Made by a program: the position numbers and the translations under genes. A stretch of 59,820 bases of DNA, counting the filler, from a bacterium (GTDB lineage Bacteria > UBP15 > UBA6099 > JAJRTR01): assembly GCA_024278215.1 (NCBI GenBank). It is 3 parts of 3 records of this genome, joined end to end, with 100 filler letters (N's around TTAATTAATTAA, not from the genome) between each part and the next. Parts side by side here need not be neighbours in the genome. Positions count along the whole stretch, not along the records: positions 46,216 to 59,820 come from JAJRTR010000030.1; 2 more parts are not named here. The stretch is one strand, 5' to 3'. The stretch's first letter is position 1, and every line of letters begins with the position of its first letter. Shown here in pieces: positions 1,709 to 59,487 of this stretch. The notes under the pieces are model-generated. The model was not told the origin of the DNA. It made no database searches and saw nothing but the letters and a program-made list of their open reading frames with translations.

Positions 1709-1757
1709 TTCCCGCATCCTCTCAAAACTTCGATTTATCACCCTGCTGTTAATATTT

Positions 1758-2138: not shown

Positions 2139-2179
2139 ATCCTGTTGCTCCTGTTCAAATACAATATATTTAATCCGGT

Positions 2180-2548
2180 TCAGTTAGGCAGAACGTGTGT
2201 TCCGGCACCTTCCCTGTGTCCGCTGACCCTGTGTTTCGGAGCAGGTGCCAGCACATAAGAAGTCATATCAACCGGACATGTTGGTATTCCGTCCGGAAAA
2301 TAGTTGTCGTTTGTTTTTATATCTGCAAGTGAACCAAGCGGCCAGGTACTTTCTGTGAAGTAATATGTCTCAACTGATGTATTTATTATTGCCCGATTCA
2401 TTTCACATGCTTGCACTTTTGCTGTTTTCGTTCCTATAGAAAACCTGGGGACAATTATTGCTGCCAGTATGCTTATCAGCACAACTATCAGAAGTACTTC
2501 TATAAGTGTAAATCCACTCTGATTGATTTTCAGTCCGGTCAGAAGCAC
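2180..2548 (-). CDS. Type IV pilin / pseudopilin, first and most divergent copy
   Basis: NQSG|FTLIE motif. Start uncertain: GTG 2548 chosen for a short leader; the ORF is open to 2626. Confidence 0.82.
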   Translation of the reverse strand: MLLTGLKINQSGFTLIEVLLIVVLISILAAIIVPRFSIGTKTAKVQACEMNRAIINTSVETYYFTESTWPLGSLADIKTNDNYFPDGIPTCPVDMTSYVLAPAPKHRVSGHREGAGTHVLPN

Positions 2549-3003
2549 ACCTTCCACAATAATCTGTAGACTTTTATCAACAACTTCCGTGCCAACTTCA
2601 GTAAAACCCTGCCTGGAAAAATCCAATATCCCGCTTTTTCAAAAAAAAAGAAATATTTCTCTGCGTATCTTGCGGCAACTACTACCCACAATGGCATTAC
2701 CCTCATATTGAGCCGTTTAAACATACTAATTAACATAATATGTGTTATCTGAAATCATTTGCAGCTTCAATTATCTTGTTTTGCAGTGAAAAACTGCATC
2801 CCAAGCAAAAATTGTTCCTGTGAATCTAAAAAATACTGAAAAAAACAAATCTTTTTCTGTTTTTTGCGAACCTTGAGAAAACTTTTAAGCGCTTGGATTA
2901 TTCCTGTATATTAACATTTTCAGGAATTGTGATTCGCGAAAATCCCGAAAAAGGGGTATTTGAATACCCGTCTTTACGCATGAATGGGTAATGCGATACA
3001 CAA

Positions 3004-4209: not shown

Positions 4210-4231
4210 ATTTGATGTTTTCGCGGCTTTT

Positions 4232-12515: not shown

Positions 12516-12516
12516 A

Positions 12517-31002: not shown

Positions 31003-32358
31003 TCACTTCTTATGCGACACCTTGTTCCAGGCGTCGAGTTCGAGCACCATATTCTCTTTTATTTCTCTGAGTTCCTCGTCAGAGAAATCCGTAAAGTTCA
31101 CAACGATCTGTTCACCCTGCTCGCCGAGTGAAAGAAGGAACTCTTCTTTATCGCCTATCTTACCCGCCTTCTGAGCAATATCGTACAATTCGGTGCCGGG
31201 ATAAGGAGTGGCGAAAAAAATGACTTCCGGCTGCAGGGCAATGGATTTGCAGAAATCTATTGTTTCCCTCACGGTTTCCATCGTCTCTCCGGGCAGTCCG
31301 GCGATAAAGGAGCAATCGGCGCGTCCCATAAGACGTTTCGTCATCAGTATGGATTCCGTCGCCTGTTCGACGGAGACCTTTTTTCTTATATTCTTAAGAA
31401 TCTTCGGGCTGCCGGATTCGATACCGTAAGCGATGTATATGCAGCCTGCTTCGCGCATCTTCAGGATCATTTCTTCGGTCATGAGGTTAGCGCGGCCCGC
31501 GCATCCCCATTCGATGTCGATATTCTCTTGCAACAGAATATCGCAGAAGTCATAAACATTTTTTTTATTGATGATGAAACAGTCGTCGGTGAAATGAAAG
31601 TATTGAATATCGTACTTGCTTTTAAGCAAAATTATTTCGTCGGCGATATTGCGCGCCGACCTGAAGCGATAGCCCGCTCCCATGAAATCGTGATAGCAGT
31701 ATATACATTTGTATGGGCAGCCCCTGCTTGATACCAGGTTCATCGAGCCGGGCGTCCCGGCAGCAGCTCCGCCGTCAACCCACTTGTTCATATTCACCGC
31801 GCCGATTGGATTATTGACATAAGTTTCCATCGGGAAAAGCTCCCAGCGCGGGAAAGGAAGCGTGTCGAGGTCTTTAATTATCCTGCGAGGCGGATTGGCG
31901 ACAGGAGCGCCCGATTCGTCGCGACGCCAGATACCGTCGACTTTCGACATGTCGCCGCCGCCCTCGAGTGTGTCCACGAGATCAAGTATTGTGTTTTCGC
32001 CTTCGCCGATGCACAGGTAGTCGACCGGATTGTTCGCCATGACGACATCAGGCGCTGAAGTGGCGCAGCTGCCGCCGAGTATTACCGGGCGGTCCGGGTG
32101 AATGGTTTTCAGCTTCGCAATCAGCTCTTTGAGCGTTTTATATATCGTTACAATGCCGCCGGTGCCGACGATGTCGTAGTCCGCGTTTTTTATGTAGTCC
32201 TCGAATTCATCGGGCGCCGGCCTCAGCGCGTTTGCATCGTAGACGTCGACTTCGTGACCGGCGTCGAGCAACACGGAAGCGAGATAGCCGAGCCCCGACG
32301 GGAAACAGTTGGGGGGTGCCCATTCCCTTATTACAGGGTGTATAAGAAGTATTTTCAT
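31003..32358 (-). CDS. Cobalamin-binding radical SAM protein
   Basis: N-terminal B12-binding domain (PSGLGYLAS, GEGE), SRGCPYKCIYC, GIESGS, PYPGT. Confidence 0.9.
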   Translation of the reverse strand: MKILLIHPVIREWAPPNCFPSGLGYLASVLLDAGHEVDVYDANALRPAPDEFEDYIKNADYDIVGTGGIVTIYKTLKELIAKLKTIHPDRPVILGGSCATSAPDVVMANNPVDYLCIGEGENTILDLVDTLEGGGDMSKVDGIWRRDESGAPVANPPRRIIKDLDTLPFPRWELFPMETYVNNPIGAVNMNKWVDGGAAAGTPGSMNLVSSRGCPYKCIYCYHDFMGAGYRFRSARNIADEIILLKSKYDIQYFHFTDDCFIINKKNVYDFCDILLQENIDIEWGCAGRANLMTEEMILKMREAGCIYIAYGIESGSPKILKNIRKKVSVEQATESILMTKRLMGRADCSFIAGLPGETMETVRETIDFCKSIALQPEVIFFATPYPGTELYDIAQKAGKIGDKEEFLLSLGEQGEQIVVNFTDFSDEELREIKENMVLELDAWNKVSHKK

Positions 32359-46215: not shown

Positions 46216-48332
46216 ACGTGGAAGGCAACTACGACATTCTCAACTACGATGGATTCTTATGTATAGACAACGACGGCAACGCCTGCGTCGGAAGTACTGA
46301 TGGAACAATATACGCTGATGATTTTGTCTGTAATACCGGCAATTGTATAGATACTTCTGACCTGAACCTGTCAACTCTCACACGAGGCACGGGACTTACC
46401 GGCAGCAATTATAATGGATCTGCCGCCACAACCTGGGCCGTCAATTACGGAAGTACAGCCGGGACAGCAGTTGAAGGCAACAAAACACTGGGTATCACAG
46501 CCAATACCGGCATATCCGTGTCGGGCAGCCCGGTCACTCTGGGTACCGGCGGAAATATTACGGTTGGAGTCGATACCACCTGGTCAGATGGTCGCTATGT
46601 GAATGTTACAGGTGATACAATGACAGGCGCGCTGACGATGAGCGGAGCAGCCGCAGATATTACTTTCGACAATGCAGGCGGAAATATTACAACCGCCGGA
46701 GGTACAATCTCCGACAGCGCCGGCGATGTCACAGTAAATGATGCACTTGGAGTAACAGGGGCCATCACAGGATCGAGCACAGTACAGGGAACACGGTTAA
46801 TCTCAACCGTAGCAATCGGCACTGCGCCATTGACCGTCACATCCACCACGAAGGTAACCAACCTGAACGCCGACCTGCTCGACGGCCTCACATCTTCACA
46901 ATTCCTGCGAAGCGACACATCCGATGACTGGAACGGACTTATACAGGGACGGCAGGACGATAACCTGGCGGTCTCCGACGGCTATGTCTGTGTGGACAAC
47001 AACGGCGCCACGGCTGCCTCCTGCGCCGGAACTACGGACGGCACTGTTTACGCCGACGATTTTGTCTGCAACAGCGGGAATTGTATCAGTAGCGACGCGA
47101 TACCCGACATTTACGTTTTCAACACCAGCGACACAATGAGCGGCAGCCTGACTGTTCAGGATAATATATATGTGAACAATCCCGACTATGGGCAGGGGCT
47201 TGTGGGGAACTACGACTCGACGAAAATCCGGCTTGTCTACTCGATGGGCGCGGCCTACATGCTCTCCGCCGACGGAACGGCGCCCGGCAATCTCTACGGT
47301 ATCGCTTATACCCACACCAACTATACCGGCGGCGGAGCGAAGGCGGGGCTGGGACACCAGATGCTGATCATGGCCAACGGAGTCACCACAACAGCTATAG
47401 GAACCGGTATCTGGACAAATGGAAATATCACAACATCTACGGATGACAACCTCTACATAACCGACGGCTCGATCTGCGCAGACGATGCGGGCGGCACATG
47501 CGTGGGAAGCACGGACGGCACAGTTTACGCCGACGACTTTATATGCAACGGCGGCAACTGCCTTGGTGCCGCGGATATAGCCGACGGACTTGGAGCCAGC
47601 GAAATCGCCGATATCTATGTTTTCAATACCAGCGACACCATGTCCGGCACACTCGCCGTGGCCGGCACACTGTCCGCGAACAATGGTATCAGTGTCGATG
47701 GAAACACAGTCATCGACAACGGCGCGGGCTGGCATCGCTCTTATGGGGCCACCGGCTGGTACAACGGCACATACGGCGGCGGCTGGTACATGACGGACAC
47801 TACTTATGTCAAGGTATACGGTGGCAAGAAAATCTGGGCGCCGAGCTATTACGACTCGGACAACACGGCCCGCTATGTGGACCCGAGCGGCAACACGTAT
47901 CTGAACCGGCTCGTGAGCGTTGACGATACGACAAAGGTAACCAACCTCAACGCCGACATGACGGACGGCTACCACGTCAGCACTACAGCAAACGCCGCCA
48001 ATACGATCCCGGTTCGCAACGCGAGCGGTTATTTGTACCTAGGCTGGATCAACACAACAAGCGGCAGCGCCGGCACGACCACGCCGACCAGGATTTACGG
48101 ATCGTATGACAGCTTTATAAGATATTACACACCCGCCAACTTTAAAACAGCTATGGGCACCACCATGTCTTGTCATATAAGAAGCTTCACAGTCGGGTCG
48201 ACTTCCAACTGCAACGCCGGCACGGCGGTTGTCGGCACGATGGACACAGGTTACAACGTGGCGAATCCCGGGAACTTCACCGGCGGCCCTACAAGCGGCT
48301 ACATGATCTGTTGTCCGACATTGCCATGGTAA
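46216..48332 (+). CDS. 5'-truncated fibre/adhesin-like protein (PilV/tail-fibre-like motifs, Cys-rich repeats)
   Basis: Gly/Thr-rich; YVNVTGDTMTG and TKVTNLNAD fibre motifs; GWYNGTYGGGWYMTD motif resembling the conserved region of shufflon PilV; Cys-containing C-terminus. Confidence 0.7.
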
Positions 48333-48404: not shown

Positions 48405-48758
48405 GTGAACTCTTTCGCGGAAAAGTACGACAAAGTAATTCCTCTCGATACGGATATATACCCGTTGGAGAGCATACAGCTTGCAGCCTGCGGTTTTCTG
48501 GACGAAGCTTTCTTTCATCTATTCCCTGAAAGCGGCAGCGGCAGACTCGGCAAGGTCAACGCGGCAATCAAGGCGAGAGCCGGCGGCGACATGAATACAG
48601 ATGAAATATGCGGAAGGTTCGTTAACGAACTTAACAGGCAGAGCTTGAGGATAGCGCTCGACAGGATAAACATAAAAGTGAGAACGCAGATAGTAGGCCG
48701 CGCGCTCGCCTCGGCGATTGCCCCCGCGGAGAAGGAATCCCGGGAAGACGCGATATAA
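48405..48758 (+). CDS. hxsD: His-Xaa-Ser system protein HxsD-like
   Basis: IYPLESI..A, F.NEL..QSLR...VRTQI..RAL resembles the HxsD LLNDYxLRE region; upstream of hxsB. Confidence 0.75.
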   Translation: MNSFAEKYDKVIPLDTDIYPLESIQLAACGFLDEAFFHLFPESGSGRLGKVNAAIKARAGGDMNTDEICGRFVNELNRQSLRIALDRINIKVRTQIVGRALASAIAPAEKESREDAI

Positions 48759-48804
48759 AGTCCGCGGATGGACGGGGACGCCGGAAAAATCCACAGGAGT
48801 TGTT

Positions 48805-49017
48805 ATGACGACAGCAAGAACAGTAACACTGGACGCAAGAATATATAAACCCAGCGCTGTAAAAGCGACGATCAAAGATTATTCGGATGTATCGGACATA
48901 AAGATGGAAAAAGACGGTCGCACAATCATAGTAACCTTCGAGAGCTGGCCCGAGGAGTACGAAGACACTATCGAATTCGAGTTCTGCAACTACACCCTAT
49001 GGAAGATGAGGAACTAG
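48805..49017 (+). CDS. Second, short HxsD-like protein
   Basis: ATG 48805 with AGGAG RBS; IY...AVK..I.DY, EFCNY.L; stop abuts the hxsB start. Confidence 0.7.
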   Translation: MTTARTVTLDARIYKPSAVKATIKDYSDVSDIKMEKDGRTIIVTFESWPEEYEDTIEFEFCNYTLWKMRN

Positions 49018-50472
49018 ATGTACACCGAAGTTATCGACAGAGCGCCCGCGATAAGGAAAGACCTGGGTTTTTTCCGTTTCAGGCGATACAGCGCGAATGA
49101 ATATATACTGACAAACGACCTTGGCGATTATATCTCCATGCGTAAGGAAGATTTTCAAAACCTGGTGCATGGCGGAGAGATGCCGGACGGAGCGATAGTA
49201 GAGAAACTGACTTCGATGGGTATACTGCGCCGTGAAGAGTTCGCCGTCCCGGAGAATATCCACAGGTACAGAAACAAGAACAGGTTTCTTTTTCAGGGCA
49301 CGCTTCTGCATATAATAGTCGGCACACTCCGGTGCAACCTGAAATGTTCATACTGCCAGGCGAGCGCGCAAAAAGGTGCGGAAAAGCAATTTGACATGGA
49401 TGAAGAAACCGCGAAGAGAGTAGTGGACGCCATCTTCCAGAGCCCCGGACCGAAAGTGGACATCGAGTTCCAGGGCGGGGAGCCGCTGGTCAACTGGCCG
49501 ATTGTCGAATACATAATCAACTACGCGAACAGGAAATCGCTCGTCGAGGATAAGGACGTTTTCTTTTCGCTGGTCTCGAATCTCGTTTCCATCTCGGACG
49601 ACCAGCTCCAGTTTCTCGTGGACAACGAAGTGGGAATATCAACATCTATAGACGGCCCCGAGAAGTTGCACGACCTGCACAGGGGAAGCGGCAGTTTCAA
49701 AAAAACGACGGCCAATCTGAAAAAATGTGTGGAAACATATAAGGAAAAGTATGTGTTGAGGCTTCCCGGCGCGTTGTTGACGGCAACTACGGATTCACTT
49801 GCTTACCCGGTGGAAATCGTAGACCAGTACGTGGAACTCGGTCTGGAATCCGTGCACCTGCGGAAAGTCAGCCCCTTCGGAATGGCCTCGAAGAGCATGG
49901 CGAAATTCGCTTATACGGACAGCGAGTTCCTCGAGTTCTATGAGAAAGCTTTTGACAGAATAATAGAGCTGAACAAAGAAGGAACGCGCTTCACTGAAAG
50001 GGCTGCTTATCTGTTCCTTTTAAAGATGATGACGGACTATCCCGTGAACCACATGGACTGCCGCAACCCGTGCGGCGCGGGGATAGGACAGGTCGCCTAC
50101 AACTATAACGGCAATGTTTATACCTGCGACGAAGGCCGCATGATGAGTATGATGGGGCGTGAGGATTTCAAACTGGGCAACGTCATGGAGAATACATTTG
50201 AAGAGATGATGGACAACGATGTCGTCAGAGCCATGTGCGCCTCTTCATGCCTGGAGAGTCTGCCCGCCTGTAATCTTTGTGCATACAAACCCTATTGCGG
50301 AGTATGTCCCCTGTACAATTTCGCCGTGGAAGGCTCCCTTTTCGGCATGGAACACTTCAACGAAAGATGCAGGATCAACAAAGGTATTCTGGACATTATT
50401 ATGAAGAAAGCCAGGGACCCTGAAGTATTAGATATTTATACGAGTTGGATAAACGACATTCTGATAACCTGA
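49018..50472 (+). CDS. hxsB: His-Xaa-Ser system radical SAM/SPASM maturase HxsB
   Basis: LHIIV.TLRCNLKCSYCQAS, IEFQGGEPL.NW, PCGAGIGQ.AYNY.G.VYTCDEGRM, C..CAYKPYCG.CP. Confidence 0.88.
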   Translation: MYTEVIDRAPAIRKDLGFFRFRRYSANEYILTNDLGDYISMRKEDFQNLVHGGEMPDGAIVEKLTSMGILRREEFAVPENIHRYRNKNRFLFQGTLLHIIVGTLRCNLKCSYCQASAQKGAEKQFDMDEETAKRVVDAIFQSPGPKVDIEFQGGEPLVNWPIVEYIINYANRKSLVEDKDVFFSLVSNLVSISDDQLQFLVDNEVGISTSIDGPEKLHDLHRGSGSFKKTTANLKKCVETYKEKYVLRLPGALLTATTDSLAYPVEIVDQYVELGLESVHLRKVSPFGMASKSMAKFAYTDSEFLEFYEKAFDRIIELNKEGTRFTERAAYLFLLKMMTDYPVNHMDCRNPCGAGIGQVAYNYNGNVYTCDEGRMMSMMGREDFKLGNVMENTFEEMMDNDVVRAMCASSCLESLPACNLCAYKPYCGVCPLYNFAVEGSLFGMEHFNERCRINKGILDIIMKKARDPEVLDIYTSWINDILIT

Positions 50473-50538
50473 CACAGGTTGATTATTAAGGAAAAGCATG
50501 TTTTAATTATTATAGGATGGAACAGGGGTGACCCAATA

Positions 50539-50844
50539 ATGAGAAAAAAAGAAGAAAAGAACAAACTGCCGAAGCCGGATAAGAGCATCAAGACATTCCT
50601 TTCATCCGAGGACGGGAAAGTTACGAAAAAGGGCCTGGTCGCCGGGGCGATCGTAATGGCGATAGTCGGCATGGCTACTGAAGCCTACGGGCATACCAGC
50701 CACAGCAACAGCCGGTTTCAGAACCTGCCTTCCCTGGACTATGGCCGCCACATATCACACAGTTCACATGGCTCGCACGGCTCGCACGGTTCTCATGGCT
50801 CGCACGGTTCACACGGCTCGCACGGTTCGCACGGTTCATGGTAG
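50539..50844 (+). CDS. His-Xaa-Ser repeat precursor peptide (HxsA-like), 101 aa
   Basis: ATG 50539 with AGGGGTGA RBS; basic leader, hydrophobic segment, HTSHSN...HIS-HSS-(HGS)8-W. Confidence 0.88.
   Translation: MRKKEEKNKLPKPDKSIKTFLSSEDGKVTKKGLVAGAIVMAIVGMATEAYGHTSHSNSRFQNLPSLDYGRHISHSSHGSHGSHGSHGSHGSHGSHGSHGSW
50749..50838 (+). repeat. Coding 9-nt tandem repeat (ten His-Xaa-Ser triplets)
   Basis: CAY-GGY-TCN units with synonymous third-position variation. Confidence 0.95.
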
Positions 50845-50890
50845 GACCGTGAAGGTTCAAAAAGGCTTTACGGCATTTGTTTAAGAACAT

Positions 50891-50955
50891 AAAACGGCGC
50901 TTGTCCTGTAACTACCGGACGCAACCGGATTTACAGGACAGGTTCCGTTTTTTTT
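50891..50955 (+). terminator. Long hairpin plus T-run after the precursor gene
   Basis: AAAACGG..CTTGTCCTGTAA..CCGG / CCGG.TTTACAGGACAGG..CCGTTTT, continuing into a T8 run. Confidence 0.7.
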
Positions 50956-51115
50956 CATACAATAACTTAACTTGTGCGTTTTTATAAAAGATAGTAGTAG
51001 AATTTATGGGGACACGATCCGGAACTAAAGGTCAAACTTCAGTCATGTCCCCAAAATTCTTGCAATATATCTGAATTCGTACAAGCAGTAATAATACAAG
51101 AGACTCATAAGTCTG

Positions 51116-52087
51116 GTGACGCTTTTGGACCGCATTGACGTAAAAGTCGGTTATTTATGCAACAACTCGTGCCTGTTCTGTGTCCAGGCCCACAACAAGG
51201 GCAAGGGCAGGGACAAGAGCACGGAAAAAATAATAAGTATACTTGAGGAATCGCGGAAGAAGTACGAAGCGGTGGTTCTCACGGGCGGAGAAGTCTCCAT
51301 CCGAGACGACGTCTTCGATATAGTCGCCGCCGCAAGGGACCTCGGTTACAAAAAAATCCATATCCAGTCGAACGGCAGAAGATTCTATTACAGGGATTTC
51401 TGCGTGAAAATGATAGAATCCGGAGCGACCGAATTCGGACTTGCTCTGCACGGCCATATCCCCGAACTGCACGACTATCTCACCCGCGCGCCGGGAAGCT
51501 TTCTCGCCACGCTGCGCGGCATCCGCAACCTGGTCGAACTCGGCCAGTCCGTCATGACCAACACGGTCATCACGAAATCCAATTACCGCCACCTTCCCGC
51601 TATTGCGCAGGTTCTTGTAAGCGCCGGCGTTTTCCAGTATCAGTTCGCTTTCGTACATGTAGCGGGCAACGCGAAAACCTACGCCCCGGCGGTTGTACCC
51701 AGAAAAACGCTTGTGGCTCCTTACGCGAAGCGTGGACTCGATGTCGGGCGGGCCAGAGGCGTGGCTGTGATGACGGAGGCGATACCCTACTGCTTTATGC
51801 GGGGCTACGAGCAGCACATCGCCGAAAAGATAATTCCTGAAACAAAAATATTCGACGCGGAATTCGTGATAGAAAGCTACACTGAAGTACGCAGAAACCA
51901 GGGGAAGGCCAAGGGCCCGCCGTGCGAGGAATGCGACATGCGCAAGATTTGCGAGGGGCCGTGGCGTGAATACCCGGAGATGTTCGGCTGGGATGAATTC
52001 AAACCGGTAAAATGGCACTCCGTCACCGGCGGCGCCGACATCGCGTTCAGGGAGAAAAAAACCGCCCCGCCCCGGAAGGGCGCATAG
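51116..52087 (+). CDS. Radical SAM protein (HxsC-like paralog 1)
   Basis: CNNSCLFC, TGGE, QSNGR, HD.LT..PGSF, IPYC, C-terminal CEECDMRKICEG. Confidence 0.85.
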   Translation: MTLLDRIDVKVGYLCNNSCLFCVQAHNKGKGRDKSTEKIISILEESRKKYEAVVLTGGEVSIRDDVFDIVAAARDLGYKKIHIQSNGRRFYYRDFCVKMIESGATEFGLALHGHIPELHDYLTRAPGSFLATLRGIRNLVELGQSVMTNTVITKSNYRHLPAIAQVLVSAGVFQYQFAFVHVAGNAKTYAPAVVPRKTLVAPYAKRGLDVGRARGVAVMTEAIPYCFMRGYEQHIAEKIIPETKIFDAEFVIESYTEVRRNQGKAKGPPCEECDMRKICEGPWREYPEMFGWDEFKPVKWHSVTGGADIAFREKKTAPPRKGA

Positions 52088-52094
52088 ATAACCG

Positions 52095-53063
52095 ATGGCC
52101 GAACAGGGATACATACAACTCACACGCGACTGCAACCAGAACTGCCGCTTCTGCTCGAACCCCGCCAACAGTAAGCGCATCGACATCGACCGCGCCGTCG
52201 GGCTGATCAACAGTTTCATCGAGCGCGGCTACAGTGGGATCATCTTCACAGGCGGCGAGCCCACACTCTGCCCGTTCCTGCCGGAACTCATAGCCCACGC
52301 GTCGCGAAAAGGTATCCCGAACCGCATTATAACCAACGGCCAGAAAATCTGTGACCGCTCATATTTCGAAACCCTCTACGAAGCCGGCCTGCGGAATGTG
52401 AACATTTCCATATATTCCGTCAGGGACGATGTCCAGGCGTTTCTTTCCGGCAACCCGGATTCGCTGAAAAACATCGCCGGTGCCCTGAAAACGCTGGATG
52501 TCTTTAAGGGTGATGTACAGACCGTGGTCAACACGGTGATCAACAAATATAACAGCGATCACCTGTCGGAAAACGTGCGCTGGGTGCTCGATAACGCGCC
52601 CTTCGTGCCCCATTTCGTGTGGAACAACCTTGACCCGGGAAACAGTAAGTGCAAAGAAAATCCCGACACAGTCCCGAAGCTGAACGACTTCCAGCTCGAA
52701 TTGTACAAAGCCGTGGATCACGTTCTCAAATCCGGGCGCACATGCCGGATCGAGCGGGTGCCCCTCTGTTACATGACGGACTTCGAGCATCTCTCCACGG
52801 AGACAAGGAAGATTGTAAAAAAGGAAAAAACCACGACCTACTTCCTGGACGAAAAGGAACTCTTTTCGCAGGACTCGTATCAGTACGACAAAGCGGATTG
52901 CTGCTCCGCCTGCTTCCTCGAGCGGATATGCGCGGGGCTGTTCGAGATGGATGTATATTATTCTTCCGACGAACTGTACGCCTGTTTTATCGACAGCGAA
53001 AAGATAACAGAGAAAATCCTCCACGGAACAACCGTGAAGGCCCCCGGCGGGATTATGACATAG
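52095..53063 (+). CDS. Radical SAM protein (HxsC-like paralog 2)
   Basis: CNQNCRFC, TGGEPT, ITNG, VPLC, C-terminal CSACFLERICAG. Confidence 0.85.
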   Translation: MAEQGYIQLTRDCNQNCRFCSNPANSKRIDIDRAVGLINSFIERGYSGIIFTGGEPTLCPFLPELIAHASRKGIPNRIITNGQKICDRSYFETLYEAGLRNVNISIYSVRDDVQAFLSGNPDSLKNIAGALKTLDVFKGDVQTVVNTVINKYNSDHLSENVRWVLDNAPFVPHFVWNNLDPGNSKCKENPDTVPKLNDFQLELYKAVDHVLKSGRTCRIERVPLCYMTDFEHLSTETRKIVKKEKTTTYFLDEKELFSQDSYQYDKADCCSACFLERICAGLFEMDVYYSSDELYACFIDSEKITEKILHGTTVKAPGGIMT

Positions 53064-53070
53064 AAACTGC

Positions 53071-54108
53071 GTGGAACCAATGAAAAGAAAAACCGGCGAC
53101 GGCTACTACGATGTACCGCCGCACGCACAGGACGATAAAAAGAAACACATCGAGATCAGCCTCGGCATGGCCTGCAACAACAAGTGCATATTCTGCCTGA
53201 ATGTCGGCCCGCGCAAGATCGTACCGTTCGAGCAGGTACGTAAAGAAGCGGCGGAATACGCCGGGGCCGGCTATAATTCCATCGGCCTCATCGGCGGCGA
53301 CCCGACCGTATATCCCCGCATTTCGGAACTCGGTCGACAAATCAAAGCCATGGGCTACAAACATATTCACATGATCAGCAACGGACGCCGCTTCAGCGAC
53401 ATCGAATTCCTGGATGAATTGATCGAGGCCGGTTTCAACAGGTTCTCAGTCTCCATCCACAGCCACCTGCCCGAAGTCGAGGACAAACTCACACAACGGC
53501 CCGGAAGCCACGCCCAGAAAATTCAGGGACTCAAAAATCTGGTCAGGCGATCAAGAGAGGGCGCGTTCCGCGAACGCGTCCCGATAAATATTGTTATGCA
53601 CAAGTTGAATATCGATAATCTGGCCGCGAGTGTCAGGTTCTTTTCCGACATCGGCATTACGGATATGAGGCTTCTCATCATACGACCCGAGGGCTACGCT
53701 CTGCAACATTTCGACCTTCTCGTGCCGCGCCTCACACGGGTGAGGGAGCGGCTGCCGGCCGTGATCCGCGCGGCACACCTGCGAAAACTCAAGGTCATGA
53801 TCGACCCGCCGCCCTACTGCCTGTTCTACGACATACCCGGTTTCAACCGGATGGTAGCGCGAGACTATCTCGATTATGTGATCTCCGACGCGCCGGACAG
53901 GGCGGTGCGCGAAACTTTTTCATGGAACGAATACAGGTTGAAGCAAAAAGTGAAAGACCCCGGCTGCAACAACTGTTGCTTCAACGGAATATGCGAGGGC
54001 GTCTGGACCGGCTATGTAAAGGTATTCGGGTTCGATGAATTCGTACCCGTCACGGACGAAATGCTGTCGGACATTCCCGCGCCGGGCGCCACAGGAAAAA
54101 CGGAGTAA
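53071..54108 (+). CDS. Radical SAM protein (HxsC-like paralog 3)
   Basis: CNNKCIFC, GGDPT, ISNGR, LTQRPGS, PPYC, C-terminal CNNCCFNGICEG. Start is GTG 53071 or ATG 53080. Confidence 0.85.
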   Translation: MEPMKRKTGDGYYDVPPHAQDDKKKHIEISLGMACNNKCIFCLNVGPRKIVPFEQVRKEAAEYAGAGYNSIGLIGGDPTVYPRISELGRQIKAMGYKHIHMISNGRRFSDIEFLDELIEAGFNRFSVSIHSHLPEVEDKLTQRPGSHAQKIQGLKNLVRRSREGAFRERVPINIVMHKLNIDNLAASVRFFSDIGITDMRLLIIRPEGYALQHFDLLVPRLTRVRERLPAVIRAAHLRKLKVMIDPPPYCLFYDIPGFNRMVARDYLDYVISDAPDRAVRETFSWNEYRLKQKVKDPGCNNCCFNGICEGVWTGYVKVFGFDEFVPVTDEMLSDIPAPGATGKTE

Positions 54109-54109
54109 A

Positions 54110-55261
54110 ATGGAGATAGATTTCAGTGACAGCGTCATCAAGTTGTTCTCCAGTGTTTCGCTGGTCGTTTTTCTGTTTCTCAGCTACCATGTCATAAAAG
54201 AGGACCTGGCATCCCAGAAAATCCCGAACAAACTCATTCTCAAATTCATGAAAATCGGCTTGTTCATGTGTGTGACTCTTTTGGTCTACGGTCTACTGAA
54301 AGACAATCAGTTCGCTGTCAATTATGCAAAGATACTGTTGCTTAATGCCGCCGTTGCCCTGGTTTGTGGATACTTATTGTGGTACTTCGACCTGTTCAGT
54401 CCGGGCGACTCGAAATATTTCGCACTGGCGGCGCTTCTTGTTCCACTCGAGTCATATACATACCAGTACGTGCCCGGTTTCCCCGCATTGCTTATTCTGA
54501 TAAACGCCTATGTCATAGCATTTCTCCTGATGTTCGCCTACACGCTTTATGTTTTGGCCGGGCGAGCTGTAACCGCCGTCGCCGCCGGTGATCTCTCGAA
54601 AGAGAATATCAGGCGAGTCGCCGACAGCGTAATGGAGAAACTCAAAGCGCCGGCATTCTGGGTCAGTCTCGCCGGTATGCTCCTCTACATGGCTTCCATA
54701 CTCCTGATAATGAGAGACTCGATCAACGTGATCCAGGGCTTCTTCAATTTCTCGCCGGGCCATTTTACCCTGATCACTGTTCTGATACTATACTTCGCCG
54801 GCAGCCGGCTTCAGGGCCTTATGAATGATAATAAAATAGTGGCCCGGGCCGCATATTTCGTTTTCGCGGGCGTAATATCCTTTCAGTATTTTATCCTCCG
54901 GCAAAATGTCTTTCACATGATCGCGGAAACTGTCGCCGCCTCCTTTTTCATGATCGTCTTCATCCCGATCGCGAAATATGTTATCGATTTATATTACGGA
55001 ACAATGGAGAACAATAAGGTTGAATATATCCGAATGGGTATCGTTCTGACGGAAGAGACAGTAGAGAAATTCCAGACGGACTGGGGTGTCGAGGTGCCTG
55101 CCCTTGTTCCCCTATCGGACAGTCAGTCGCAATCAGTCAAAGACAACATCCCCAACAACGAAAAAATATGTACGGTCAAGCACATAACATTCGGCCCGTT
55201 TATCTTTATCGGCGCGATGTTTACTTTCTTGTTACGGCACACGATCATTCACTATCTATAG
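54110..55261 (+). CDS. A24-family (prepilin/preflagellin) aspartic peptidase-like membrane protein
   Basis: EDLASQKIPN (first Asp), FSPGDSKY (GxGD-like second Asp), C-terminal ITFGPFIFIG; ATG 54110 lies 1 nt after the upstream stop. Confidence 0.7.
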   Translation: MEIDFSDSVIKLFSSVSLVVFLFLSYHVIKEDLASQKIPNKLILKFMKIGLFMCVTLLVYGLLKDNQFAVNYAKILLLNAAVALVCGYLLWYFDLFSPGDSKYFALAALLVPLESYTYQYVPGFPALLILINAYVIAFLLMFAYTLYVLAGRAVTAVAAGDLSKENIRRVADSVMEKLKAPAFWVSLAGMLLYMASILLIMRDSINVIQGFFNFSPGHFTLITVLILYFAGSRLQGLMNDNKIVARAAYFVFAGVISFQYFILRQNVFHMIAETVAASFFMIVFIPIAKYVIDLYYGTMENNKVEYIRMGIVLTEETVEKFQTDWGVEVPALVPLSDSQSQSVKDNIPNNEKICTVKHITFGPFIFIGAMFTFLLRHTIIHYL

Positions 55262-55358: not shown

Positions 55359-56891
55359 TCAATCACTGTTTTTTCCTGTGCCGGTATCGGCCGGGATAAG
55401 GCTGATCAAGGCGTAATAATAATTGAAAATATTCTCGGAAAACAACTCCCGTGGCGCAAACTTGCTGAAAACCTTCGAGCATATCTCCTTCCGGCCGGTC
55501 GCGCATTCCATCTCGAATACAACAACTTTACACCTGCGATGTTTCTCCATGAACGCGCCATCCAGCAACTGTGTTATCTCGTAATTCGGGTTGTCGGTAT
55601 ACGTCATTCCTATGGAAGGATTAACAGAAAAAACGGAACACTTATCAACCACTTTCGGAAGACGATCCGCAATGAAATCGTCCTGCGCCTCCGCGAAATC
55701 CCTCAGGACGACAAGACTCACATTAAACGACGAAAAGAGAAAGACTGCCAGACAGAGCGTGACCAGGCCGTTTCTTACAGCAATGCTTTTTGTCACGTCA
55801 AGAAGCCAATCGGCGGTTATTCCGAAAAAGAGAATTAACGGAATAGTCGCCGGCAGCATAAACCTCGGGAAATCCCCCAGGGGGAGATGAATGTCGAGAA
55901 GACTTATCGCGAGTATTGAAACAAAAACGAAAAAGAAAAGTGGGCGGGAAACACCGCAGCGACGACCGAGAAACACAGGCGCGACGAATAACGGGATAGA
56001 GACAAAAAACGGGATGTATTGATTCGAAAACAGGAAAATAATATTAGTCTTAACGACACCGGGATAACCACCCGGTGGAAGCGCGAATGCACTTCTGTAC
56101 ACAGGTGGAAGAACAAAAATCAGAGCAGCAATCAGTGCGGCTCCGGCCAGGGCCGCAAGTATCTTTTTGAGGTCGTGCGGACCGGCGGCAAGAAGAACAA
56201 TCAGGATAAAGGCGGCTGTATACGCGTTGCGAGGCTCGAGCAGGATAGAAAATACTATTGCCGAAAAGAGACCCGCCCCCGATAGTGCGTCTTTATTCCT
56301 CAGGTACAGAAACAAAAATGTGAATGTGATGCACAGAAACAGCAAATCCGCGGTTTCCGTGGTAGCGTTTCCGGAAAGAATCACATTGAGCGGGAGCACG
56401 GAAGCCGCGAACGACGCGAAAAGCGCAGTGCGCGCACTGCCCGCCGCCGCCATCGCCATGATGAAAACCACAGGGATGCACAAAACCCCCAGAACAGAAT
56501 TCAGCGTGAACAGGACATTCGGCGAATACCTGCCCGTCAGCCGCATCGCGGCGGCGCCCATGAATGGGAACCCGGTGGCGTAAACGGGAGGCTGCCTGTC
56601 TTCACATTTTTCAAATGTTCCAGCCGTGCAAACCGAGAAATCGCCTTCCCCCGCGATCATCCGCGCAATATTGTTGATTTCATACTCGACATAAAACACC
56701 TTGAACCTGTGTGGACTGTGGTCGAACCGAAACCATATCCCGAGAATAATTGTTGCCGCGAGAAGCAGGATGAAAACCGGCTTCAGCTTTTCTCCCACTC
56801 GCAGAGCGGCGGGTACCCCGACAATAAAAAGCGCCACCGCCGCCGATAAACACAATACGTGCAGGATAAGCAGTAAGAAATTGCCGGTCAT
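55359..56891 (-). CDS. GT-C (ArnT/PMT-like) membrane glycosyltransferase
   Basis: RF after TM, acidic loop YVEYE, ATGFPF, LP...LS....TE, RFMLP; many TMs. Confidence 0.65.
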   Translation of the reverse strand: MTGNFLLLILHVLCLSAAVALFIVGVPAALRVGEKLKPVFILLLAATIILGIWFRFDHSPHRFKVFYVEYEINNIARMIAGEGDFSVCTAGTFEKCEDRQPPVYATGFPFMGAAAMRLTGRYSPNVLFTLNSVLGVLCIPVVFIMAMAAAGSARTALFASFAASVLPLNVILSGNATTETADLLFLCITFTFLFLYLRNKDALSGAGLFSAIVFSILLEPRNAYTAAFILIVLLAAGPHDLKKILAALAGAALIAALIFVLPPVYRSAFALPPGGYPGVVKTNIIFLFSNQYIPFFVSIPLFVAPVFLGRRCGVSRPLFFFVFVSILAISLLDIHLPLGDFPRFMLPATIPLILFFGITADWLLDVTKSIAVRNGLVTLCLAVFLFSSFNVSLVVLRDFAEAQDDFIADRLPKVVDKCSVFSVNPSIGMTYTDNPNYEITQLLDGAFMEKHRRCKVVVFEMECATGRKEICSKVFSKFAPRELFSENIFNYYYALISLIPADTGTGKNSD

Positions 56892-57276: not shown

Positions 57277-59487
57277 ATGGTAAGAGAAGCTTCCCCAGCA
57301 AAAAACATTCTGAAAAAATATGCCTGGATAATTATTATTTTACTTGCGATATTTCTTAGAACAGTCTACATGAATTATAACAATATCGGTCATTATATTA
57401 TCCCGTCTATGATAACGGCCCTGGATATCGCGGAGGGCAAAAGCTTTCCTCTCGAGGGTCCTGTTCTCGGCGAATTCAACGCGAAACACGGACCGGCTTC
57501 GTACTATCTTTTCGCGTTGCCTATTCTTTTTGATCACAACCCGCTTAATATCTTTTTCTTTATCGTGTTGCTTAATGTCATATCCGTATACGTGGTATAC
57601 AGGATAGGAAAAGATTTTTTTTCGGTGAATGCAGGCTTGATTGCGGCGCTTATCCATGCTGTGCAGCCCAATCTTGTAGTCTTCTCTCGCAATATTACAG
57701 ACGACGCGCTTGTGCAAATCTTTGTCGCGCTGATTTATTACTGCTTTTTTTCTATTATATCGAACAATAAAACACGTCTTTCCTGGGTTGTCCTGCCGGT
57801 CGCTTTCGCGCTGGGAATGCAATTGCATTTCCAACTCGTGGTTACTCTCTTTTTCGTTGTCCTGCTGTTTCTGTTTTTCAAACCTGCCGTGCCTCAAAAG
57901 CAACTGGGGATCGGTATTGCTATCGCCCTGCTGTGCCTCTCACCCCAGATATGGCACGATCTCACCATAAGCAACACACACTTTCTCTCTTTCTATTACG
58001 CAGGCTTGGACTTCCTGAAAAATAATGTAAGCATACCGGATAACCAGATGAACAGCAGGGGCAACATTTTCAGCAACTGCTTAATCGTCTTCGGCGTTCT
58101 GTTCTACTACTATCTCGCGGCGCTGGTTTTCGTGACCGCCGGAATGGTCAGGGAGAAAGTCGCGAGCGGCACGTGGTTCAACTTTGAAAATCAAAAGATA
58201 CTGTCTCTGCTGATCTTTTCCATCCCCTCACTTCTGGTGTTTTCCAATTACGGCAGCCAGATTTTCAACCGGCATCATGCCGCCTTCACGCCTATGGCTA
58301 TATTGATCGGGATCGCGCTGAGCGGCATGTTTTCCACCTCGCTCAAGGGTAAAAAAACATACGTGAGAATACCGGCGTTGTTCGCCAGGTCGGCGGTCAT
58401 GTTGTTTTTCGCCGGTATTATTCTTTTATACATCGTCAAATCATACGGCATTGCATTAATTAATGTGAATCCTGCTCCCGGCAAATACTTTAATGTGTTC
58501 GGTCGATTCATGTGCATGGATCAATACCGCAATGATTGCGAAGAAGTATTGGAGAGCGACAGTGTAGACTTCTGGCAGGACACATATTATTACCGGAGAA
58601 AGCAGTTTGAAATATTTTTTAACGACTTTGGATTAGATCGTAAAACACTTCTTGCAAATGTGCATGGGATGCCGTATTTCAGAATGTTTGGCGACGATGG
58701 GTATCTTTTCCGCACATTGCCGCAGGGCAAGTCGACAGATGCGGCATCATTCCATTACCTGATAGCAGAGGCGGACACGCTAAAATCTTTTATCGACCGA
58801 ATGAAAATCATAAAAACAGTGCGTCTTTCCTCGCTTGTAGCGCTTAAATACAAGTCGTATATCGATTATTCGGGTTTAAAGTATATGGATATAAACGATG
58901 GACAAACAATAGTGTCCGGCCCCGGCGATATGCAATGGATCAATAGAGCAGCCCCCTTGATGCAGTTGTCCGATATATGTTGCGGTCATGCCTTTTTCGG
59001 TGTTTTTCAGCACTATATATTGTGGCTGCATGAATCGTTGGAGTATCCGCACTGGAGCAGGTTCGAGCGTGGTGTGGACAGGTCGATAAACCTTGGGATA
59101 ACCGATAGTTCACTTGATACTACCAACCATTACCACTGGATCAGGGCATGGAACCAGGGCGGCAAGATAGTTAAGGGATCAATAGGGGAACCGGATGATT
59201 TTTCGTCGATGCTGCTGGTCGTCGAGGTGCTTTTCAAGGATATACGGGAAACGCTTGTCGGGCCGGGCCGGGATGTCGAGATACACTTGTATTTCAACAA
59301 TAAAGAGATACAGACAGCGGAGGTGGGTTACAGCGGAAATATCTTCTTCGGAGAGAGTTACAGACATTATTACATTATCGACAAGAAGTATTTCGGCGAC
59401 AGTAACGCCTTTACATTTACAATAAACGATCCACATACGGAAGAAAGATACGCGATCGACGTATACGGCATTGCGCTGAAAGACTGA
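57277..59487 (+). CDS. GT-C (ArnT/PMT-like) membrane glycosyltransferase with large C-terminal soluble domain
   Basis: LAIFLR, FPLEGP, HGPASYYL, GLIAALI.AV.P.LV.FSR, QLHF. Confidence 0.72.
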   Translation: MVREASPAKNILKKYAWIIIILLAIFLRTVYMNYNNIGHYIIPSMITALDIAEGKSFPLEGPVLGEFNAKHGPASYYLFALPILFDHNPLNIFFFIVLLNVISVYVVYRIGKDFFSVNAGLIAALIHAVQPNLVVFSRNITDDALVQIFVALIYYCFFSIISNNKTRLSWVVLPVAFALGMQLHFQLVVTLFFVVLLFLFFKPAVPQKQLGIGIAIALLCLSPQIWHDLTISNTHFLSFYYAGLDFLKNNVSIPDNQMNSRGNIFSNCLIVFGVLFYYYLAALVFVTAGMVREKVASGTWFNFENQKILSLLIFSIPSLLVFSNYGSQIFNRHHAAFTPMAILIGIALSGMFSTSLKGKKTYVRIPALFARSAVMLFFAGIILLYIVKSYGIALINVNPAPGKYFNVFGRFMCMDQYRNDCEEVLESDSVDFWQDTYYYRRKQFEIFFNDFGLDRKTLLANVHGMPYFRMFGDDGYLFRTLPQGKSTDAASFHYLIAEADTLKSFIDRMKIIKTVRLSSLVALKYKSYIDYSGLKYMDINDGQTIVSGPGDMQWINRAAPLMQLSDICCGHAFFGVFQHYILWLHESLEYPHWSRFERGVDRSINLGITDSSLDTTNHYHWIRAWNQGGKIVKGSIGEPDDFSSMLLVVEVLFKDIRETLVGPGRDVEIHLYFNNKEIQTAEVGYSGNIFFGESYRHYYIIDKKYFGDSNAFTFTINDPHTEERYAIDVYGIALKD

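Follow-up and report, generated by a model that had tools for sequence, protein, structure and literature searches.

Gene content of the locus

The window, that is the whole stretch of DNA analysed (59,820 nucleotides, filler included), comes from an uncultured bacterium. Its cluster comprises two HxsD-like genes, HxsB, a precursor gene, three HxsC-like radical-SAM genes and an A24-like gene, with the following features:

48405..48758, + strand: HxsD-like small protein, 117 aa; NCBIfam TIGR03976 HxsD 33 bits, E 5.7e-08 (cut-off 50, not reached)
48805..49017, + strand: HxsD-related small protein, about 70 aa; NCBIfam NF038315 HxsD_rel 56.3 bits (cut-off 41 passed)
49018..50472, + strand: HxsB, radical SAM/SPASM maturase, 484 aa; NCBIfam TIGR03978 499.5 bits (cut-off 370 passed)
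50539..50844, + strand: HxsA4-type precursor, 101 aa; NCBIfam NF038313 HxsA4 69.6 bits (cut-off 55 passed)
50539-50616, + strand: precursor leader, residues 1-26, with FLSSEDG at its C-terminal end
50617-50691, + strand: precursor basic plus hydrophobic segment, residues 27-51, ending AYG
50692-50841, + strand: precursor His-rich core, residues 52-101, ending (HGS)8-W
50885..50960, + strand: stem-loop with a U8 run after it, in the gap between the precursor gene and that of radical SAM protein 1
51116..52087, + strand: HxsC/HxsC4-like radical SAM protein 1, 323 aa; Pfam Radical_SAM; NF038332 HxsC4 161.5 bits (cut-off 500), TIGR03977 HxsC 107.2 bits (cut-off 267.9)
52095..53063, + strand: HxsC-like radical SAM protein 2, 322 aa; Pfam Radical_SAM; TIGR03977 68.7 bits (below cut-off)
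53071..54108, + strand: HxsC/HxsC4-like radical SAM protein 3, 345 aa; Pfam Radical_SAM; NF038332 149 bits, TIGR03977 80.8 bits (each under its cut-off)
54110..55261, + strand: A24-family (GxGD aspartic protease) homologue, 383 aa; last gene of the operon

Profile searches, in which HxsB, HxsA4 and HxsD_rel exceed their NCBIfam cut-offs, identify the locus as an HxsA4-type variant of the known His-Xaa-Ser (HXS) radical-SAM peptide-maturation system, to which a predicted A24-family membrane GxGD aspartic protease adds one conserved component. HxsB matches both Pfam Radical_SAM and SPASM. Homologues of the HxsD-like protein lie upstream of HxsB in 16 of 25 related loci. The HxsD-related ORF is listed from TTG 48718 and its likely start is Met30 at 48805; the NF038315 match covers residues 37-97 of the long ORF, and the homologues in loci L001 and L002 have about 70 residues each. 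The stem-loop behind the precursor gene (MFE -35.9 kcal/mol, z -8.8; none of 200 shuffles folds equally well) is absent from the list of a simple terminator scan and looks like a terminator or attenuator.

Translation from the ATG at 50539 to the stop codon ending at 50844 matches exactly the 101-residue precursor written out in an earlier note on this DNA: MRKKEEKNKLPKPDKSIKT-FLSSEDG-KVTKK-GLVAGAIVMAIVGMA-TEAYG-HTSHSN...HISHSS(HGS)8W. No second copy of the leader motif and no second HxS run was found in the window. The precursor has 336 homologues at E<=0.01, and the family layout consists of a 26-residue leader (..LPxIKKxIKxFLxSE(E/D)G), a basic KIxKK stretch with a short hydrophobic segment, and a His-Xaa-Ser repeat core. 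The earlier note had cautioned that the helix is short, and across 120 sequences the uncharged segment indeed has a median length of 16 residues (range 10-37). It often closes in a small-x-small pattern ahead of the first His; by a crude heuristic for signal-peptidase-type sites, a small residue directly precedes that His in 68/120 sequences and A/V/S/T/G/I/L/C stands at -3 in 81/120. Because the segment is short and ends in this manner, the piece that follows the leader resembles a cleavable Sec signal more than it does a pilin anchor.

Leader motif and A24-like protease

Conservation of the F..E(D/E)G leader was borne out. The earlier note had offered lack of conservation as a way to refute its reading; the motif F-L-x-S-E-(E/D)-(G/A) is present in 120 of 121 homologues, so that objection falls away. 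At the proposed cut position (position 0) the motif-bearing homologues have Gly (107/120) or Ala (13/120), either of which A24 enzymes accept at P1, flanked by E at -2 (118/120), E/D at -1 (117/120) and K/R at +1 (107/120). Positions +4/+5 carry conserved Lys, not Glu (the earlier note had raised +5 of this precursor, where pilins have Glu, as a caveat); the hydrophobic stretch begins about 7 residues past the Gly. Further downstream, K occurs at +9 in 75/120 sequences and G/A at +11 in 119/120, the latter being a candidate alternative site nearer the hydrophobic core. Conservation extends to both sides of the Gly over a stretch of about 30 residues in all, a pattern that would suit recognition by the maturases no less than cleavage by a protease.

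The ORF listed for the A24-like gene spans 54035-55261; translation probably begins at the ATG at 54110, which has GGAG upstream and lies one base past the TAA (54106-54108) that ends the gene of radical SAM protein 3. Both A24-type Asp motifs were found as claimed, IKED32LASQKIPNK (D32 codon 54203-54205) and SPGD100SKYF (D100 codon 54407-54409). They are invariant among six close homologues, and both Asp residues are kept in 11/11 full-length cluster-linked homologues from other loci; across 116 family members, conservation reaches 90% or more at D32, G99 and D100, and K102 never varies. Of these 116, 73 match Pfam Peptidase_A24 at E<=1e-3 (best 9.7e-10), and the window protein scores 24.9 bits from ATG 54110 and 22.6 bits as the longer ORF, both below the gathering cut-off of 26.5. 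In an hhalign comparison with a canonical prepilin peptidase of the TadV type, the two Asp motifs of each protein fall in register (E 0.0039, with a probability of just 8.6). Given this register and the Pfam matches across the family, the Asp motifs are judged to exceed chance occurrence. Among cluster homologues, the archaeal one of L008 passes both Peptidase_A24 (29.6 vs 26.5 bits) and Arc_PepC (26.6 vs 23.4), and those of L013 and L021 pass the Arc_PepC gathering cut-off.

The A24-like family numbers 718 representatives at E<=1e-3. The window protein has about 10 predicted helices and a small soluble domain (residues ~300-358). Its AF2 model (pLDDT 92.1) gave FlaK as the top PDB fold match (3s0x_B; prob 0.96, E 0.37, TM 0.48 on target); a sequence search of the PDB returned nothing, and the nearest Atlas clusters bear PF01478 and PF06819. 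By Pfam/NCBIfam annotation, this is the only protease-like gene found in the window cluster.

Linkage was examined in 25 related loci fetched through the precursor, an A24-like gene being counted when within 10 kb of a leader-bearing precursor. The A24-like gene recurs beside such precursors in 12/25 loci in addition to the window, a rate affected by the fact that 11 of the 13 A24-negative loci end at a contig end or the fetch limit. The positive loci are bacterial (unclassified bacteria, Deltaproteobacteria, Spirochaetes, Saccharibacteria, Azambacteria) and archaeal (Woesearchaeota, Aenigmatarchaeota, Methanosarcinales), and one, L021, is a minimal cluster of an A24-like gene, HxsD, HxsB and precursor only. 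L023 holds a lone precursor, Hxs enzymes being missing from its neighbourhood. In L024 the motif and HxsB are kept and no A24-like gene was found within +-10 kb; as the one A24-negative cluster that retains HxsB and was seen whole, it leaves a comparison by co-variation nearly powerless. Two classical HXS loci gave 0 matches to the A24-like gene, and their HxsA proteins, which carry an ordinary signal peptide, lack the FLxSEEG motif. HxsB adjoins the precursor in most loci; the A24-like gene varies in position and strand. Since the motif is tied as closely to HxsB and HxsD as to the A24-like gene, linkage gives no means of telling a protease site from a maturase-recognition role.

Candidate routes of precursor processing

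The explanation that we tentatively prefer, and to which we would assign slightly less than an even chance, is that the A24-like protease cleaves off the conserved leader, with the Gly as the most probable P1 residue. In the cytoplasm, the radical-SAM enzymes, namely HxsB and the three HxsC-like ones, would act together with the HxsD-like proteins to bind the leader and modify the core, and the hydrophobic segment would enter the membrane with the N-terminus inside. The A24-like protease would cut at the cytoplasmic face, most probably at the bond that follows the invariant Gly/Ala, which in this precursor is G26|K27. The KVTKK-hydrophobic-AYG remainder would serve as a Sec-type signal or anchor, and signal peptidase I may next free the His-rich peptide outside the membrane. 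Such putative processing resembles that of prepilins, and nothing indicates the building of a filament; the candidate substrate also departs from known A24 substrates, positions +1 to +6 being charged and +5 being Lys, not Glu.

A predicted complex of the A24-like protease with precursor residues 1-62 weakly favours their pairing, scoring 0.59 (runs 0.37, 0.60, 0.59) against 0.01 for the best of three controls; at least 76% of contacts agree between runs and the partner pLDDT is at least 55. The calibration counts are only roughly valid here, own alignments having been used: the score mark is reached by 58/80 solved complexes and 2/110 mismatched pairs, and it is reached at scores of 0.60 or under by only 7 of those 80 solved complexes and by both passing mismatches. 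The prediction came without a returned interface, so the scissile bond of the protease is a guess.

It is possible, if rather unlikely, that the N-terminal motif serves for recognition by the maturases (HxsB, HxsC-like, HxsD) only and that signal peptidase I makes the sole cleavage, at AYG|H; the A24-like protein would act elsewhere, clearing the long leader-signal remnant out of the membrane in the style of a signal-peptide peptidase or cutting another substrate. The conserved residues on both sides of the Gly agree with this, as do the position of HxsB directly beside the precursor in most loci, the variable place and strand of the A24-like gene, and the motif retained in L024. The length of the uncharged segment and the residues before the first His would suit signal peptidase I, although its rule was scored by the crude heuristic alone. 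As described in PMC13128918, classical HxsA, with its ordinary signal peptide, undergoes N-terminal processing without a dedicated protease. However, this explanation gives no account of an A24 protease that recurs with both Asp residues across two domains, even in the minimal L021 cluster, and leaves unexplained the restriction of position 0 to Gly/Ala in 120/120 sequences.

That the A24-like protease cuts the precursor nearer the hydrophobic core, at the G/A of +11 (A37 in the window) or, in the window's subclade, at KKG32|L33, appears improbable. In known A24 substrates the cut falls just ahead of the hydrophobic helix, archaeal prepilin peptidases likewise cleave right in front of the hydrophobic stretch, and archaeal cluster homologues bear the FlaK-type Arc_PepC domain; the near-constant G/A at +11, the K at +9 and the KKG|LVAG sequence of the window, L001 and L002 point the same way. 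Gly is, however, common in the h-regions of signal peptides, and in the alignment to a Flp prepilin it is G26 that falls on the cleavage Gly, and not G32. Since Gly at +6 occurs in only 8/121 homologues (among the loci, L001, L002 and L010 only), KKG cannot be the family-wide site.

The earlier note had called the leader Flp-pilin-like. This held for the alignment with a real Flp prepilin (18/36 identical, G26 on the cleavage Gly), but not for membership of the Flp family, which is unsupported on three grounds: the Pfam Flp model matches 0/24 leaders at E<=10, Lys replaces Glu+5, and the cluster has no pilus assembly genes. In a tblastn search of a plasmid collection at E<=1, a Flp pilin was the only match for the window leader plus helix (E 0.8), and 0/5000 segment-preserving shuffles reached the pairwise score. 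The family median score is 28.5 vs 67 for the window, whose match is the best of a whole database; judged by alignment score, the resemblance is specific to the window's subclade.

A true RiPP/pilin hybrid, in which the cleaved, anchored peptide would be drawn out and polymerised to give a Flp-like filament displaying modified His-rich tails, would be favoured by this similarity, by the type IV pilus/T2SS genes 45 kb away in window coordinates and by the canonical PilD genes that lie close upstream of the clusters in two related CPR (Candidate Phyla Radiation) loci. We regard it as very improbable: neither Pfam Flp_Fap nor a class III signal model matches any of the 24 leaders, conserved Lys stands in place of Glu+5/Tyr+6, the resemblance is subclade-specific, and neither the window cluster nor six annotated related clusters contain a gene for a secretion ATPase, platform or secretin. 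The membrane-anchored, pilin-like product proposed earlier likewise fits poorly with the short, Sec-signal-like segment, its signal-peptidase-like ending and the lack of pilus assembly genes in the clusters examined.

Comparison with known systems

The classical HXS system was reportedly predicted bioinformatically by Haft and Basu in 2011. PMC9062424 cites this prediction as reference 10, and PMC13128918 shows the classical system (HxsDBCA, Pseudomonadota) to be an antiphage system in which N-terminal processing of HxsA needs HxsB/C/D. Common to the window and classical HXS are an HxsB above the equivalog cut-off, HxsD-like proteins, HxsC-like radical-SAM enzymes, and a tandem His-x-Ser substrate that is exported (predicted in the window) and probably N-terminally processed during maturation here as well. 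[quoted passage not shown] The window has three HxsC-like genes, all of which fall under the HxsC and HxsC4 cut-offs, and the A24-family protease gene is additional to both classical loci. The variant occurs in uncultured bacteria, CPR bacteria and DPANN (small-celled) archaea, against a reported 99.7% Pseudomonadota for HXS.

With Flp/Tad systems, exemplified by Paraburkholderia terrae pPT65 and its TadV/CpaA-type A24 peptidase, the window shares a leader ending F..(E/D)(E/D)G ahead of a hydrophobic helix, and a peptidase gene that is linked to its (putative) substrate gene and has alignable catalytic motifs. It differs in having no TAIEY motif (Lys stands in for Glu5/Tyr6), no match to the Pfam Flp model and no tad assembly genes. 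The hydrophobic stretch is set off from the Gly by six charged or polar residues, and the peptidase has 383 aa (~10 helices plus soluble domain) as against 183 aa for the TadV-type enzyme.

The GxGD aspartic core is shared with the archaeal peptidases FlaK, PibD and EppA (structure 3S0X), FlaK being the best fold match and archaeal cluster members bearing Arc_PepC. The substrates of PibD extend beyond pilins, for example to sugar-binding proteins, which offers a precedent for A24 substrates other than pilus subunits. The window protease is nevertheless far longer than the FlaK PDB chains (383 aa vs 186-225 residues), P2/P3 are acidic in the window family whereas FlaK prefers Lys there, and the putative substrate is a radical-SAM-modified peptide, unlike those of the archaeal enzymes.

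RiPP leader peptidases include the C39 peptidase-transporters and subtilisin-type LanP. The window would share their logic, namely a conserved leader recognised by the maturases and a cluster-encoded protease expected to remove it. To our knowledge, neither the A24 class nor a membrane-face cut before a Sec-like signal is found among RiPP leader peptidases, and the literature searched held no paper linking these with A24 proteases. In gene content, the pairing of a prepilin-type protease with a His-repeat radical-SAM peptide is found in several bacterial groups and in small-celled archaea.

Gene content and identity of the cluster

The genes under study form a tight operon on the + strand of the window (48405-55261), listed here with the model scores on which their assignment rests.

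Genes of the operon (coordinates, strand, product, model scores with cut-offs)
48405-48758, +, small ORF 1, HxsD-like: TIGR03976, 33 bits (cut-off 50)
48718/48805-49017, +, small ORF 2, HxsD_rel: NF038315, 56.3 bits (cut-off 41)
49018-50472, +, HxsB radical SAM/SPASM protein of 484 aa: TIGR03978, 499.5 bits (cut-off 370)
50539-50844, +, HxsA4 peptide of 101 aa, the precursor: NF038313, 69.6 bits (cut-off 55)
51116-52087, +, radical-SAM protein 1, ~320-345 aa: HxsC4 161.5 bits (cut-off 500), HxsC 107.2 bits (cut-off 267.9)
52095-53063, +, radical-SAM protein 2, ~320-345 aa: HxsC4 58.3 bits (cut-off 500), HxsC 68.7 bits (cut-off 267.9)
53071-54108, +, radical-SAM protein 3, ~320-345 aa: HxsC4 149 bits (cut-off 500), HxsC 80.8 bits (cut-off 267.9)
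54110-55261, +, A24-like membrane protein: ORF open from 54035, likely start ATG 54110, 1 base past the preceding TAA stop, with GGAG upstream

NCBIfam assigns three of these genes (HxsB, HxsA4 and HxsD_rel), each over its cut-off, to the His-Xaa-Ser (HXS) system of radical-SAM-modified peptides; for all three downstream radical-SAM proteins the best NCBIfam match is HxsC4 or HxsC, far under the cut-offs. Given these matches, and since the classical HXS system (hxsD-B-C-A of Pseudomonadota) is published, the cluster is a variant of a known system and not a new kind of RiPP. PADLOC (2023) returned a generic radical-SAM similarity to pVip and nothing else. Translation bears out the precursor as the earlier note had read it, ending HIS-HSS-(HGS)8-W; its core carries 10 consecutive H-x-S units, and the gene is unique in the window.

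Between the precursor gene and the downstream radical-SAM genes lies a stem-loop followed by a U8 run (50885-50960, +), with a minimum free energy of -35.9 kcal/mol and a z-score of -8.8, a stability matched by 0 of 200 shuffles. It is likely an attenuator which sets the ratio of precursor to enzyme.

Directly upstream of the operon is a gene for a 704-aa Gly/Thr/Ser-rich protein (46218-48332, +) with repeats resembling "C(I/V)D(N/D)(D/N)GxxCVGSTDGT(I/V)YADDF(V/I)CN(T/S/G)GNC," the sole family match of which is a sub-threshold one to LDL-receptor class A. The downstream flank holds two large PMT_2-type membrane glycosyltransferase-like genes (55359-56891, -; 57277-59487, +), one of them with a weak Agl23 family match. 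Elsewhere in the window are two more radical SAM/SPASM genes within a sugar-modification/polysaccharide cluster, an IS4-family transposase and a B12-binding radical-SAM gene (11442-13575, -; 26649-27875, +; 31003-32358, -). A pilin-like protein with an N-terminal methylation motif is encoded together with T2SSF and T2SSE/MshEN ATPase proteins at 1343-5935 (-), and these type IV pilus/type II secretion genes stand 45 kb away from the operon; no prepilin peptidase of the canonical kind was detected in the window. In this uncultured bacterium the PilB-like ATPase has its nearest named relatives among unclassified metagenome-assembled "bacterium" records (57-68% identity), followed by Omnitrophota (~46-49%).

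A conserved leader and its resemblance to Flp prepilins

The precursor has 336 homologues at E ≤ 0.01. Among the window precursor and the best 120 of these, 120 of 121 possess the leader motif [FY][LFC]xxE[ED][GA]. With the proposed P1 residue (G26 in the window) set as position 0, this residue is Gly in 107/120 and Ala in 13/120 sequences. Upstream of it P-15 (106/120), K-12 (105), K-11 (108), F-6 (116), L-5 (112), E-2 (118) and E/D-1 (117) are conserved, and past it K/R+1 (107), I/V/M+2 (118), K/R+4 (101), K+5 (58) and G/A+11 (119). By a crude heuristic applied to the 120 sequences, the basic KIxKK stretch is followed by an uncharged run with a median length of 16 residues, a small residue immediately precedes the first His in 68/120, and position -3 relative to that His fits the signal-peptidase rule in 81/120.

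The NCBIfam HxsA3 and HxsA4 models both span the leader, and classical HxsA matches both in the repeat region only; the two classical HxsA proteins which we translated begin with an ordinary signal peptide and lack the FLxSEEG motif. In four related loci recovered through the precursor, the precursors combine the conserved leader with Cys-rich or Asp/Ser/Tyr-rich cores that contain few or no His-x-Ser repeats (L013, L015, L020 and L025), and the leader thus defines a broader precursor family than does the repeat. The same leader is also found on proteins of ~500-545 aa in four loci (L008, 4104-5741; L009, 9989-11482; L010, 9998-11572; L017, 9995-11524), where a hydrophobic segment comes next, then a repeat region (His-x-Ser, or Ser/Thr in L008) and finally a C-terminal domain that opens with CPF(V/I/L)xVWNG.

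The earlier note had described this leader as Flp-pilin-like, and the description holds in part. Like Flp prepilins, the family has a leader ending in Gly, within a conserved E(E/D)(G/A) motif. Unlike them, it has Lys in place of Glu+5/Tyr+6, and its hydrophobic run does not directly follow the proposed cut but begins at about +7, six charged or polar residues intervening. A Pfam search of 24 N-terminal regions revealed no Flp (PF04964), pilin or class III signal family at E ≤ 10, with HMMER filters that drop most matches above ~0.1. When the 54-residue window leader was compared by tblastn with 7.3 Gb of plasmid sequence, the single match at E ≤ 1 was a Flp family pilin of Paraburkholderia terrae (E 0.8), the gene of which adjoins one for a prepilin peptidase. 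The two share 18/36 identities, with G26 opposite the Gly at which the Flp pilin is cleaved. This pairwise score was attained by none of 5000 segment-preserving shuffles, a test which makes no correction for the Flp pilin having been picked as the best of the whole database; the score is 67 for the window precursor versus a median of 28.5 for other members of its family. A tblastn search started from that Flp pilin recovers, at E ≤ 1, no species other than its own, from which it follows that this search has little power for proteins this short. On this evidence the Flp resemblance is real for the window subclade, stands at chance level by database statistics and falls short of family membership.

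The A24-like protease and its distribution

The earlier note attributed both A24-type Asp motifs to the last gene of the operon, correctly so: its 383-aa product carries "IKED32LASQKIPNK" and "SPGD100SKYF." The Pfam Peptidase_A24 model (PF01478) gives this protein 24.9 bits (22.6 for the longer ORF), below the gathering cut-off of 26.5. No NCBIfam model matched it, and a sequence search of the PDB returned nothing at E ≤ 10. A word-index search yielded five relatives besides the protein itself, a result which had suggested a rare accessory gene; this notion was overturned when a profile built from the six proteins was run against 1.84 billion representatives and recovered 718 at E ≤ 1e-3 (296 at E ≤ 1e-10), most of them 340-420 aa long and matched over their full length. 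Close relatives bearing a source name are all annotated as hypothetical proteins.

An alignment of 116 family members shows K102 to be invariant and D32, N40, G99 and D100 to be conserved to 90% or more, with the consensus motifs "SYxDIxxGKIxNK" and "WxAGDAKLF"; Peptidase_A24 is matched at E ≤ 1e-3 by 73 of these members (best 9.7e-10). Alignment with a canonical TadV-type prepilin peptidase using hhalign places both Asp motifs in register with their counterparts "SDLHSRRIPN" and "AGDVKL" (E 0.0039, at a probability of only 8.6). The AlphaFold2 model (pLDDT 92.1, pTM 0.85) consists of about ten helices with a small soluble domain before the last, and the top of its 354 PDB fold matches is the GxGD protease FlaK (3s0x_B; probability 0.96, rmsd 4.5 over 142 columns, TM 0.48 on the target, but E 0.37). 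In the language-model Atlas the protein neighbors clusters carrying PF01478 and Arc_PepC. Taken together, these findings lead us to conclude that the protein is in all probability a divergent but genuine A24-family homologue, its putative catalytic pair intact.

One genome per GTDB species was scanned with a 35-row precursor alignment (a subset of the 121 sequences), resulting in 25 loci; the rows had been picked by the pattern FLxSE[ED]GK[IV][TSV], and the loci are consequently biased towards that form of the motif. All 25 contain a leader-bearing precursor, that of L023 lying on the opposite strand. A family HMM built from the protease-family alignment detected an A24-like gene in 12 of the 25 (L001, L002, L006, L008, L013, L014, L015, L017, L020, L021, L022 and, as a fragment at the edge, L025). 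The hosts of these 12 are unclassified bacteria, Deltaproteobacteria, Spirochaetes, Saccharibacteria, Azambacteria, Woesearchaeota, Aenigmatarchaeota and a Methanosarcinales archaeon. The 11 copies of full length all keep both Asp residues. The copies from archaea additionally match Arc_PepC, which in FlaK-type enzymes is the C-terminal domain, and the L008 protease exceeds the gathering cut-offs of both Peptidase_A24 (29.6 bits) and Arc_PepC. The smallest cluster, L021, comprises the A24-like gene, HxsD, HxsB and the precursor.

Eleven further loci (L003, L004, L005, L007, L009, L010, L011, L012, L016, L018 and L019) end, at the contig end or the limit of the 10-kb span, inside or right beside the cluster. 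The remaining two, visible over ±10 kb, are without an A24-like gene. In L024 the motif is retained, and the precursor is accompanied by HxsB and a fused radical-SAM gene. The precursor of L023, on a high-GC Myxococcales contig (9993-10337, - strand of the locus), is genuinely of the HxsA4 type and has a long (HGS)n run; it is an orphan, no HxsB, radical-SAM or A24-like gene lying within 10 kb. Two CPR (Candidate Phyla Radiation) loci, closely related to each other, have a canonical PilD-type gene ~0.1-1.1 kb upstream of HxsD: L009 (5794-6606; 114.5 bits for A24_N_bact and 57.6 for Peptidase_A24) and L017 (6805-7617; 111.8 and 49.6 bits), the latter of which also has the Hxs-type A24-like gene; PilD-type genes were sought in all loci and found in no others.

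The protease-family HMM gave no match in two classical HXS loci. The co-variation of leader motif and A24 gene raised in the earlier note stands at the level of system type, at which the two go together (12 of 25 loci as against none of the two classical ones). A finer comparison of motif with protease is without power, and HxsB and HxsD track the motif equally well.

A complex was predicted from the protease (116-row alignment) and precursor residues 1-62 (121-row alignment). It scored 0.59 (runs 0.37, 0.60 and 0.59) versus 0.01 for the best of three controls; the runs share at least 76% of contacts, and the partner pLDDT is at least 55. In the benchmark, 58 of 80 solved complexes attain the mark, as do 2 of 110 mismatched pairs; at scores of 0.60 or less it is reached by only 7 of the 80 solved complexes and by both of the passing mismatches. 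These counts apply here only roughly, our own alignments having been used. The prediction thus lends weak support to binding of residues 1-62 by the protease, and, reporting no interface, it is silent on which bond is cut.

Proposed leader processing and comparison with the classical HXS system

The reading which we favor, tentatively and a little short of calling it probable, is that the A24-like protease cleaves off the leader on the inner side of the membrane, most likely after the invariant Gly/Ala, and that what is left acts as a Sec-type signal or anchor. The conserved leader would first serve the cytoplasmic maturases and the segment past it would insert into the membrane, whereupon the protease would cut the leader off, in the window precursor most likely at G26|K27. 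The leftover KVTKK-hydrophobic-AYG stretch would then function as the signal or anchor, and signal peptidase I may cut before H52.

The main alternative, possible though rather unlikely, is that the motif serves for maturase recognition only, that signal peptidase I makes the sole maturation cut, and that the protease disposes of what remains or acts on some other substrate. Less probable still is a cut nearer the hydrophobic core, either at the G/A of +11 or, in the window subclade, at KKG32|L33. Gly is present at the latter position in only 8/121 homologues, and L001, L002 and L010 are the only loci to have it, which rules it out as the general A24 site of the family. A true, pilus-forming version of the RiPP/pilin hybrid inferred in the earlier note is hardly tenable, as the precursor has neither Glu5 nor a helix of pilin length and no tad/cpa assembly genes are found in the window cluster or in six annotated related clusters.

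If the favored leader removal by the A24-like protease is extended to the family as a whole, the distinct A24 branch represented by the 718 proteins may, though this is less likely than not, be the dedicated leader peptidase of HxsA3/A4-type radical-SAM peptide systems, with a pilin-type leader and its protease recruited to release a modified His-rich peptide at the cell surface or anchor it there. Systems of this type occur widely, in uncultured bacteria, CPR bacteria and the small-celled DPANN archaea. That models for HxsA3, HxsA4, HxsC4 and HxsD_rel exist indicates that the variants are already known to NCBI curators. Our literature search found no paper naming HxsA4 or HxsC4, and none linking A24 peptidases with radical-SAM peptides, the part concerning prepilin peptidases and RiPPs being judged from listings. 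Interest attaches to the finding that recruitment of a protease of the prepilin-peptidase type is conserved.

According to a recent report on the classical system (PMC13128918), HXS is an antiphage system of Pseudomonadota which blocks phage DNA entry. [quoted passage not shown] Antiphage activity and a modified, exported effector are established for classical HXS only. By analogy, the modified His-rich peptide of the window variant might bar phage or other invading DNA at the level of the envelope. With an obvious candidate protease encoded by the variant, processing is open to direct testing, and the A24-like gene provides a direct handle on this unexplained step of HXS-type systems. Were the enzyme the leader peptidase, peptide-maturation pathways would gain a new class of protease, A24 enzymes would gain a class of substrates other than filament subunits, and a conserved system would be defined in CPR bacteria and DPANN archaea, the gene content of which is largely uncharacterized.
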